DNA of 64,000 nt from a virus (taxonomy: Duplodnaviria > Caudoviricetes): the IMG/VR virus record IMGVR_UViG_3300021121_000001, positions 1-64,000 of that record, one strand, 5' to 3'. A program made the position numbers and the translations under genes. The notes beneath the pieces were generated by a model. It worked only from the letters and a program-made list of their open reading frames with translations, searched no databases and was not told where the DNA came from. Positions 34,190 through 37,081 of the stretch are shown here, piece after piece; the first letter of the stretch is position 1, and every line of letters starts with the position of its first letter.

Positions 34190-34222
34190 AAAAAAAAGGT
34201 GAAGATTTAAATTTCTTCACCT
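34190..34222 (-). terminator. Rho-independent terminator after the phosphoesterase gene
   Basis: aggtgaaga/tcttcacct 9-bp stem followed by a U8 tract on the minus strand. Confidence 0.85.
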
Positions 34223-35627: not shown

Positions 35628-36062
35628 CTAATTGGTATTATTAGAATTTAACAATTTAATTTTATTATTTATAATTTCAAGGATTGCTTCTTTAGAAAAT
35701 GTATTCACCTGTCTGTTCGTAAGTCTAATTGGTTCATACCCTTCTTTTCTCAATCTTTTTGTTCTTAGATTATCTTTCTTTATACCTTGTTTTGTAAAAT
35801 GTCCACTTCCATCAATTTCTATAAAAATTGAATGATCAATTAATAAAAAATCAAGAATATACAATTCCAAGCATTTGACAATGACAGGTTTTTGAAATTC
35901 AAAAGCAAAGCCAAATTCTTTTAAATACTCCAGCACTATTTTTTCTTCAGGGGTGCTTTTCTTTTTTAGTTGTGTTGCATGTGCTTTTCCTACTTTGACA
36001 AGAAAATCATACCTTTCCTGGTTTGTGTATTTTGACTTTTTTTTAACAGATTTTTTTGCCAT
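35628..36062 (-). CDS. DUF559 / Vsr-like PD-(D/E)xK endonuclease
   Basis: STPEEK...FQKP...YILDF...IFIEIDGSGH...KD..RT..L...GY..IRLTN. Confidence 0.85.
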   Translation of the reverse strand: MAKKSVKKKSKYTNQERYDFLVKVGKAHATQLKKKSTPEEKIVLEYLKEFGFAFEFQKPVIVKCLELYILDFLLIDHSIFIEIDGSGHFTKQGIKKDNLRTKRLRKEGYEPIRLTNRQVNTFSKEAILEIINNKIKLLNSNNTN

Positions 36063-36077
36063 AAAATTACTTAATTA

Positions 36078-36085
36078 CAAACTTA
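36078..36085 (-). promoter_or_regulatory. Bacteroidota -7 element (TAAGTTTG) upstream of the DUF559 gene
   Basis: TAnnTTTG 15 nt before the ATG. Confidence 0.55.
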
Positions 36086-36152
36086 ATGCTTATATTTGTG
36101 TATTCATAATTCATCAAAGTAGATAATTAAAATAATTATTTTTACTTATAGA

Positions 36153-36184
36153 TTTGGAAATATGATTAATGTTTTGTAAGTTTG
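36153..36184 (+). promoter_or_regulatory. Consensus Bacteroidota primary-sigma promoter on the + strand (TTTG-N20-TAAGTTTG)
   Basis: -33 TTTG at 36153-36156, -7 TAAGTTTG at 36177-36184, 20-nt spacer; points away from all coding genes. Confidence 0.8.
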
Positions 36185-36189
36185 TATTA

Positions 36190-36334
36190 TAGTAATTACT
36201 TGTTTGCCGAAACAAATAGTAACACTAGAAAACTGATATATTCAAATTATTATAAATTTTCTAGTTCTCTCACTGGTTTCGGACTTTGAGGGAACTTTGA
36301 ACCTGCCCCAAGTACATACTACTTGGGGTTTTTT
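36190..36334 (+). ncRNA. Putative structured small RNA (~145 nt)
   Basis: Promoter upstream. Hairpins at 36196-36222, 36224-36265 (actagaaaa/ttttctagt) and 36264-36295 (gttctctca/tgagggaac, G-U valid on +). Intrinsic terminator at the end; no ORF. Confidence 0.65.
36305..36334 (+). terminator. Rho-independent terminator of the + strand sRNA
   Basis: gccccaagta/tacttggggt stem followed by a U-tract. Confidence 0.85.
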
Positions 36335-36573
36335 ATTCCCCGCCTGGAAGCAGTGTTAATTTTTTGATTAATTACAAAATAGGTTTGAAATAGCACCTTA
36401 AAGGTTACTCCTGTATATAGCCTAAAGCTTTTGAAATTTTTCCAAATGAATAAACGCCACCACTTTAGATCTCTATGAACAGTATGTCCAAATTTGTCTC
36501 AAAAGAGGTAGACTCTCTAAAATAAAAATTTCCTGGGGTGGCGATTTCTTCAATTTTTTGATGGAGGTAAAAC

Positions 36574-36613
36574 TATAAAACCCCCTAATTAATAAAAATC
36601 AGGAGGTTTTATA
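36574..36613 (-). terminator. Hairpin / probable terminator after the basic-protein genes
   Basis: tataaaaccccct...aggaggttttata; the single mismatch is a G-U pair on the minus strand. Confidence 0.6.
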
Positions 36614-36629
36614 AGTTCTTGAGAATAGA

Positions 36630-36944
36630 TTAGCTATTCGCTCCTTTCTTTTTTCCTTGTACAGCACCATATGCTCTTATTCCTCCCACTCTTTTTGCAG
36701 GAGTTCCTGTAGCACCACCAGTCTTATACTTTTTCATTGCTTTCTTTTTGCCACCAAACTTAGCCATCATTTGAGCTGTTTGAGATCCTTCAGGACCTGG
36801 AGGAGGACCTTGTTGAGCCATTGGAGGCATAGGAGGAGCCATTGGAGGAGCCATTGGAGCTTTCCTAGCAGGAGCAGATTTCTTCATCATCTTTTTAGGA
36901 GCTGATTTTTTTGCTGCTGATTTTTTCATCATTTTCTTTTTCAT
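36630..36944 (-). CDS. Lys/Met/Pro-rich basic low-complexity protein (histone H1-like composition)
   Basis: KKMMKKSA repeats, MAPP repeats, AKFGG and YKTGG motifs. Confidence 0.7.
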   Translation of the reverse strand: MKKKMMKKSAAKKSAPKKMMKKSAPARKAPMAPPMAPPMPPMAQQGPPPGPEGSQTAQMMAKFGGKKKAMKKYKTGGATGTPAKRVGGIRAYGAVQGKKKGANS

Positions 36945-37081
36945 TTCTTTGTTTTTTTCTTTGTTACTAATTTTTTTGTTTTACTTGTTGACGTTTCTTT
37001 AGATGCAAATTTTTCACCGAGCTTAAAAGCTTTCTTTGCTTTTGCAGCAGGTGTGAGTCTTTTTTTTATTACTTTTTTCAT
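36941..37081 (-). CDS. Unannotated 46-aa highly basic micro-protein (MKKVIKKRLTPAAKAKKAFKLGEKFASKETSTSKTKKLVTKKKTKK)
   Basis: Its TGA overlaps the ATG of the 104-aa gene (ATGA coupling); fills the gap after the 37118-37153 terminator. Confidence 0.7.
   Translation of the reverse strand: MKKVIKKRLTPAAKAKKAFKLGEKFASKETSTSKTKKLVTKKKTKK

Follow-up and report, generated by a model that had tools for sequence, protein, structure and literature searches.

Few known phages are as abundant as the crAss-like phages, whose regulatory RNAs are, to our knowledge, almost unexplored. Among other phages, the C4 RNA of P1 and P7 and the CI RNA of P4 are small, structured, phage-encoded RNAs acting by base pairing; processing releases them from longer transcripts of the immunity region, and the sites they pair with lie close by in the same operon. 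Phage lambda OOP and P22 sar are short transcripts opposite neighbouring genes, ended by an intrinsic terminator, and overlap the 3' end or the start region of a defined gene. In the literature searched, the only non-coding RNAs on record for crAss-like phages are two long early RNAs of phi14:2. In this crAss-like Cellulophaga phage abundant non-coding RNAs come from two long intergenic regions, and the middle and late genes are read by the host polymerase (bioRxiv 10.1101/2020.03.07.982082). In Bacteroides, GibS and the FopS family are intergenic sRNAs with a sigma-A promoter and an intrinsic terminator; in the FopS RNAs, 65-70 nt long, the terminator comes after a single-stranded seed at the 5' end, and a FopS sequence has been seen in one Bacteroides phage (PMC11697453). 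The Rfp sRNAs belong to Flavobacterium psychrophilum (PMC9723704).

The window analysed here, that is the whole stretch of 64,000 nt, represents the first 64 kb of a complete virus record of 115,327 bp with direct terminal repeats and a G+C content of 31%. All genes from position 1 to ~63.7 kb are on the minus strand and those of the second arm on the plus strand. Pfam CrAss_Ring_1 and CrAss_Ring_2, a PHROG DNA-repair exonuclease and giant ORFs of 1,399-4,238 residues are crAss-like markers, and the public runs containing the phage are all freshwater or lake metagenomes, none of them an RNA run. The source is a freshwater crAss-like phage and the window its late (structural) arm. Outside the window, inside the plus-strand arm or at its end, perfectly palindromic hairpins at 89871-89902, 98511-98538 and 111864-111891 carry A-run and T-run flanks and may act as two-way terminators.

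The largest gap within the structural arm (36063-36629, 567 nt) lies between the gene of a DUF559 nuclease and a gene pair for Lys-rich micro-proteins (36630-37081, minus strand); by PHROG and Pfam, the near neighbourhood consists of DUF559, the exonuclease, tail ring proteins and Lys-rich small proteins. The two micro-proteins (46 and 104 amino acids) are translationally coupled and extremely Lys-rich, the larger with a Pro/Met-rich middle part, and three of the related loci introduced below (L003, L006 and L009) have a single ~40-aa basic peptide in their place. The DUF559 gene stands directly upstream of the exonuclease gene and is kept across the phage group, and is therefore not a sporadic homing endonuclease. 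A minus-strand terminator (34197-34222, 9-bp stem, T8) comes directly after the exonuclease stop and extends into the start of the gene for tail ring protein 2, so that DUF559 and exonuclease would constitute a two-gene unit with its own promoters and terminator. The DUF559 start codon is preceded by ~16-22 nt by a TAnnTTTG-like -7 box in L005, L006, L009, L003 and the window, at the same place before the gene in the window, L005, L006 and L009. Because these boxes recur in the relatives, host-type promoters appear to be really in use at the DUF559 position in this phage group, which fits phi14:2.

The gap houses a candidate transcription unit on the plus strand that overlaps none of the annotated genes and is oriented opposite to all neighbouring genes (Table 1). 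Its promoter (TTTG, a 20-nt spacer and TAAGTTTG, 36153-36184) fully matches, as a motif, the Bacteroidota primary-sigma -33/-7 consensus TTTG/TAnnTTTG (PMC2483708). The features listed in a preliminary description of this locus are present letter for letter at their positions, including a consensus promoter, which is of the Bacteroidota type and not the E. coli consensus; a sigma-70 scan has no listing for 36153-36184. Since the Flavobacterium -7 box occupies -12 to -5 (PMC9723704), the start is placed at about A36189. The intrinsic terminator also noted there is confirmed and strong, with six T; it begins 116 nt downstream of this predicted start, and in a genome-wide scan it is the sole intergenic plus-strand terminator in the 64-kb minus-strand arm. 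No ATG occurs between the predicted start and the terminator. The sequence signals thus fit the self-contained plus-strand unit that had been proposed, and the term 'antisense' holds for its orientation relative to the neighbours but not for an overlap with any annotated gene. As in a generic bacterial or phage sRNA gene, an intergenic region is predicted from sequence to contain both a promoter and an intrinsic terminator of the unit's own. We tentatively read the unit as a strain-specific gene for a small non-coding RNA of ~147 nt, read by the host polymerase and fired together with the nuclease. The interpretation is plausible and the candidate a fairly ordinary one, and we hold it with less than even confidence. 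RNA polymerase of the host with its Bacteroidota-type primary sigma factor would start at ~36189 and stop at the terminator.

Table 1. Coordinates of the candidate unit, its predicted RNA features and the flanking elements.
Feature	Positions	Strand	Remarks
DUF559 (Vsr-like endonuclease fold) gene	35628-36062	-	Pfam PF04480, E 8e-14; PHROG HNH endonuclease; divergent from the unit
DUF559 promoter -7 box, leader and ATG	36060-36085	-	inverted duplicate of 36177-36202
-33 element TTTG of the plus-strand promoter	36153-36156	+	20 nt upstream of the -7 box
-7 box TAAGTTTG of the plus-strand promoter	36177-36184	+	sequence and motif scan
Predicted transcript, ~147 nt	36189-36335	+	start by promoter geometry, end by terminator T-tract
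29-codon frame opening at TTG 36200	36200-36289	+	ends 16 nt before the terminator
Hairpin 1	36200-36215	+	6-bp A/U-rich stem, loop GCCG, -3.4 kcal/mol; in the minimum-energy fold
CCGAAAC	36207-36213	+	three loop bases and four 3'-stem bases of hairpin 1
Hairpin 2	36224-36265	+	ACTAGAAAA/TTTTCTAGT, 9 bp, 24-nt A/U loop, -5.6 kcal/mol
Hairpin 3	36263-36296	+	10-bp outer stem (one G-U) plus 4 bp, -14.5 kcal/mol; in the minimum-energy fold
GUUUCGG	36276-36282	+	hairpin 3 apical region; exact complement of 36207-36213
Intrinsic terminator	36305-36334	+	10-bp stem (36305-36329), 5 G-C pairs, 5-nt loop, T6
Rest of the strain-specific intergenic insert	36336-36572		no significant fold; duplicated flank fragments (repeats D1 and D2)
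Minus-strand terminator of the upstream operon (46-aa and 104-aa Lys-rich genes)	36573-36614	-	weak T-tail

The fold energy of the unit is -41.1 kcal/mol on the plus strand (z = -5.2, terminator included) and -36.0 kcal/mol on the minus strand (z = -4.0). Plus-strand polarity is favoured because a T-tract lies 3' of the terminator hairpin on the plus strand only, G-U pairs are present in hairpin 3 and at the base of the terminator, and the plus-strand fold is the stronger one. Much of the z-score stems from the terminator: the body without it (36189-36304) gives z = -2.3, with 5 of 200 shuffles folding equally well. Taken by itself, the promoter motif does not exceed chance (8 matches observed, 7.1 expected in the A+T-rich window), and non-coding DNA contains TAnnTTTG at a density hardly above that of coding DNA. 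Both strands of the 115-kb genome together contain only six full motifs with a spacer of 19-21 nt, and thus the chance of a full-consensus promoter lying 100-200 nt upstream of a given terminator is ~0.003.

We then characterized the RNA by its predicted folds, based on nearest-neighbour energies and with the helices named after the hairpins 1-3 of the preliminary description. Hairpins 1 and 3 are found in the minimum-energy fold, together with the terminator hairpin (-15.5 kcal/mol), but hairpin 2 lies outside it, shares three bases (36263-36265) with hairpin 3 and belongs to a long-hairpin alternative only. The exact complementarity between CCGAAAC and GUUUCGG, the latter within the 14-nt apical region of hairpin 3, is as described; a 7-nt complement this rich in G+C arises in 0.6% of body shuffles, and the plus strand of the 115-kb genome contains CCGAAAC once and GTTTCGG twice. 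CCGAAAC had been placed at the apex of hairpin 1, which is incorrect. Because four of its seven bases sit in the hairpin-1 stem, the pairing is not a loop-loop kiss, as had been suggested, and requires hairpin 1 to be melted.

Together with hairpin 2, the 7-nt pairing forms a nested long hairpin with arms at 36207-36238 and 36251-36282, an arm match score reached by 5.5% of shuffles. This long hairpin and hairpins 1 and 3 are mutually exclusive, consistent with the proposed competition between the alternative pairing and the hairpin-1 stem. For the named helices, the long hairpin has -31.2 kcal/mol compared to -33.4 kcal/mol for the local hairpins, and after optimisation -34.9 compared to -38.8 kcal/mol; the alternative is thus predicted to be 2-4 kcal/mol less stable, i.e. 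near-isoenergetic. If the outer stem of hairpin 3 is kept, the 7-nt pairing would become a pseudoknot, calculated by hand to be ~4 kcal/mol worse than the local hairpins, a difference within model error. Of the pseudoknot or two-state switch that had been put forward, the alternative fold therefore exists, but nearest-neighbour calculations give its self-pairing conformer a share of only 0.16% at equilibrium. A two-state RNA is possible according to these calculations but not indicated.

For the small-RNA reading we assume that the RNA acts by base pairing, and the hairpin 3 apical region (GGUUUCGG) is its most exposed G+C-containing stretch in the predicted fold. No complement of the hairpin-3 loop 7-mer is found in the phage mRNAs of the 115-kb genome, nor an extended complement of this loop in phage start regions. 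A target in trans, if the RNA has one, would therefore belong to the host and presumably be an mRNA. Duplex energies against the 124 phage translation start regions reach a minimum of -24.6 kcal/mol for the real RNA and a mean minimum of -25.9 kcal/mol for shuffled RNAs, so that the proposed search for targets on phage mRNAs gave scores no better than those of shuffled RNAs. The sole phage complement, CCGAAAC, may capture the hairpin-3 stretch in the slightly less stable long-hairpin or pseudoknot form and thereby create a self-masking conformer.

Compared with the described systems, the unit resembles the Bacteroidota sRNA genes GibS, FopS and Rfp in being a stand-alone unit with a TTTG/TAnnTTTG promoter and a Rho-independent terminator, without a long ORF and of a size within the usual sRNA range. 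Unlike these genes, it is single-copy, not conserved and phage-borne in a late arm, and it has no sequence or Rfam match to them. With FopS and GibS it shares the canonical sigma-A (ABfr) promoter, as a motif match only, but not the build of the RNA: unlike FopS, the predicted RNA is 147 nt long, contains several hairpins (three internal helices) and has a base-paired 5' end in the minimum-energy fold. Like phi14:2, the source is a crAss-like phage with intergenic non-coding transcripts, here predicted only. Unlike the RNAs of phi14:2, which are long, come from the early region and are co-directional with their neighbours, the present unit is short, located in the late arm and opposite to its neighbours; a search of the GenBank phage collection gave no match, to phi14:2 or otherwise.

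The predicted RNA would share with C4 and CI that it is small, structured, phage-encoded and, as we suppose, acting by base pairing. Unlike them, the unit comes with a promoter and a terminator of its own, complementary sites are missing from the phage mRNAs, and there is no immunity region here, i.e. no immunity operon with target sites just downstream on the same transcript. The likeness to C4/CI-type RNAs is not supported by Rfam, where the C4 family is not among the matches even at E up to 10. The similarity to lambda OOP and P22 sar consists in a short opposite-strand transcript ended by an intrinsic terminator, and differs in that no annotated gene is overlapped. By analogy, the unit thus seems closest to the stand-alone Bacteroidota sRNA genes with sigma-A promoters and is a member of none of these.

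The earlier statement that no Rfam family can be assigned is borne out. A search of the window against Rfam 15 gave no match at gathering score, and for the plus strand of 35900-36700 the best scores (NsiR1 18.9 bits, Spot_42 18.8, anti-hemB 16.4) are far below the cut-offs and rest on the terminator. The whole phage genome gives no hit to the 6S-Flavo RNA model (RF01685) at E up to 1, and 35900-36700 gives none at E up to 10. For a CRISPR-repeat mimic RNA (a solitary repeat unit), the comparison covered the CRISPR-DR families of Rfam, none of which appears at E up to 10. As the element is an orphan, no RNA family is assignable. Other kinds of element were considered and rejected. No tRNA or tmRNA is found; a riboswitch or attenuator lacks a plus-strand gene downstream and an alternative pairing with a terminator arm; the GC skew is monotonic through the region, arguing against a replication origin; and the terminal repeats of the genome, relevant for a packaging site, sit elsewhere. 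A second structured block at 36335-36575 is likewise dismissed (z = +0.41), and the rest of the insert (36336-36572) shows no significant fold.

To place the gap among relatives, related loci were collected from viral contigs (L003 and L004) and metagenome contigs (five loci), with none in genome contigs and none reached via the 794-aa spike or the DUF559 protein. Six loci were compared, L003 from the viral contigs and L005-L009 from the metagenome contigs. The nearest exonuclease relatives are 63-71% identical, and an identical exonuclease is encoded on three contigs. In L005, L006 and L009 the upstream terminator is followed by the DUF559 promoter within ~60 nt, leaving no room for the element; L007 and L008 have ~3 kb of other small genes at the gap position; and the gap of L003 (~600 nt) does not align to the element. 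The small ORFs of L007 and L008 (2000-5000, in relatives with 63% identity) lie on both strands, mark an accessory-gene hot spot in the structural arm and include one of 88 aa that bears a CxxC motif and resembles a thioredoxin or glutaredoxin.

Searches at the nucleotide level gave the same picture. Using blastn and nhmmer, only A+T-rich noise was obtained for the gap against the relative loci, and four exact or gapped DNA patterns had no match in viral and genome contigs, host genomes being covered through one exact 20-mer against the genome collection. A covariance model of the RNA finds only itself, with no second copy in its own genome and none in the relatives. Conservation of the stems, which the preliminary description had named as its refutation test, is thus not seen: neither the six relatives (L003, L005-L009) nor the own genome nor the viral and genome collections searched contain a homologue. 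Contigs from three freshwater DNA metagenomes (runs X2, X3 and X4) are identical over the element, with 0 variants, demonstrating that it is not an assembly artefact. Run X4 contains a relative whose 104-aa gene is ~88% identical and whose contig diverges from the window at 36577. This second strain, which co-occurs in one lake metagenome, covers 36577-36931 and has the Lys/Pro-rich 104-aa gene with a 9-nt insertion after 36814. As the relatives differ at the gap and the X4 contig departs at 36577, the gap is a variable spot and the element appears to be private to the strain.

A point that is new relative to the preliminary description concerns the origin of the promoter. Positions 36177-36197 match an inverted copy of 36085-36065, the DUF559 promoter and leader, at 18 of 21 positions with a 10-nt identical core, a score that 1% of shuffles attain. 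Promoter and leader of the unit are hence an inverted duplicate of those of DUF559, and the promoter together with the first RNA bases would have arisen by such a copy. Since promoter and leader are shared, RNA and nuclease are probably switched on together. Further into the gap, at 36358-36378, an 11-nt copy of 36552-36562 (AATTTTTTGAT, beside the upstream terminator) is joined to an 11-nt copy of 36071-36081 (TTAATTACAAA, from the DUF559 promoter region). Part of the gap thus seems to have been put together from duplicated fragments of a short ancestral one.

These duplications also suggest a different origin, in which the unit is a functionless by-product of local duplications and its hairpins are leftover DNA dyad symmetries. 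In that case the terminator would persist solely to prevent stray transcription from colliding head-on with the late operon upstream, or the copied promoter would be inactive. We consider this doubtful yet credible. The gap holds duplicates of its flanks (D1 and D2, joined at 36358-36378, and I2, the promoter copy) and lies at a variable spot that each relative fills differently. Counted against the small-RNA reading are the absence of the element from the relatives, of a second copy and of an Rfam match, the weak body fold, the chance-level promoter motif, the missing target signal, the 29-codon frame and the 0.16% conformer; the absent conservation, the weak fold, the promoter motif taken alone and the missing target signal likewise favour a by-product. 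However, the probability that chance alone places a strong terminator, in the right orientation, as far from a full-consensus promoter as is usual for small RNAs is only ~0.003, and against stray transcription the loss of the promoter would be an easier fix than the gain of a terminator. The rare G+C-rich 7-mer complement (0.6% of shuffles) and the unchanged sequence in three runs, which may nevertheless represent one clone, also argue against a by-product.

The convergent arrangement of the unit with the upstream operon raises the possibility of an antisense or insulator RNA acting in cis. Late read-through would be counteracted by collision, or by perfect pairing between the two RNAs followed by double-strand cleavage, and the upstream operon would be uncoupled from DUF559-exonuclease. 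In support of this, the minus-strand terminator at 36614-36573 is weak, with an imperfect 18-bp stem of only 4 G-C pairs and a TTTTACC tail, so that some late transcripts may read through the gap; furthermore, a degenerate second copy of the DUF559 promoter (36368-36385, minus strand), if active, would give rise to a long 5' UTR overlapping the RNA. On the other hand, the good -7 box of DUF559 (36085-36078) starts transcription outside the RNA, such that the two main transcripts do not overlap, the relatives manage without such an element and the read-through itself is only hypothetical. We therefore regard a role in cis as unlikely.

The position of the duplicated leader is also of interest with respect to coding capacity. 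In an ungapped alignment of both leaders the DUF559 ATG falls exactly on TTG 36200, 16 nt after the -7 box, and in L006 and L009 the DUF559 genes themselves start with TTG behind TAACTTTG boxes, i.e. the same kind of promoter, at the same distance. The frame opening here fits within the transcript, and the unit could accordingly be a tiny mRNA for a 29-residue peptide with incidental hairpins. This is unlikely yet credible in our view: by a rough estimate an open frame of 29 codons has a ~9% chance at this composition, the peptide is rich in S, N and Y like translated A+T-rich noise, is not hydrophobic and has no PHROG match, the start codon is buried in hairpin 1, and no A-rich motif resembling a ribosome-binding site is located upstream (compare TAAAA, PMC2483708). 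That the RNA is instead a dedicated partner of DUF559 (an inhibitor, decoy or guide, co-fired from the mirrored promoters and set in its activity by a CCGAAAC/GUUUCGG switch), by analogy to a type III toxin-antitoxin RNA-protein pair or an RNA-guided nuclease, seems very improbable.

The small non-coding RNA gene remains our tentative reading of this locus. As a single, unconserved prediction from an uncultured phage, its value is mainly that of one more data point. If true, it would mean that accessory spots in the late arm of these phages can hold small RNA genes read by the host polymerase, and that such genes can arise fast through an inverted copy of a neighbouring promoter. Like protein 'morons', small RNA genes would then be gained and lost among closely related phages.
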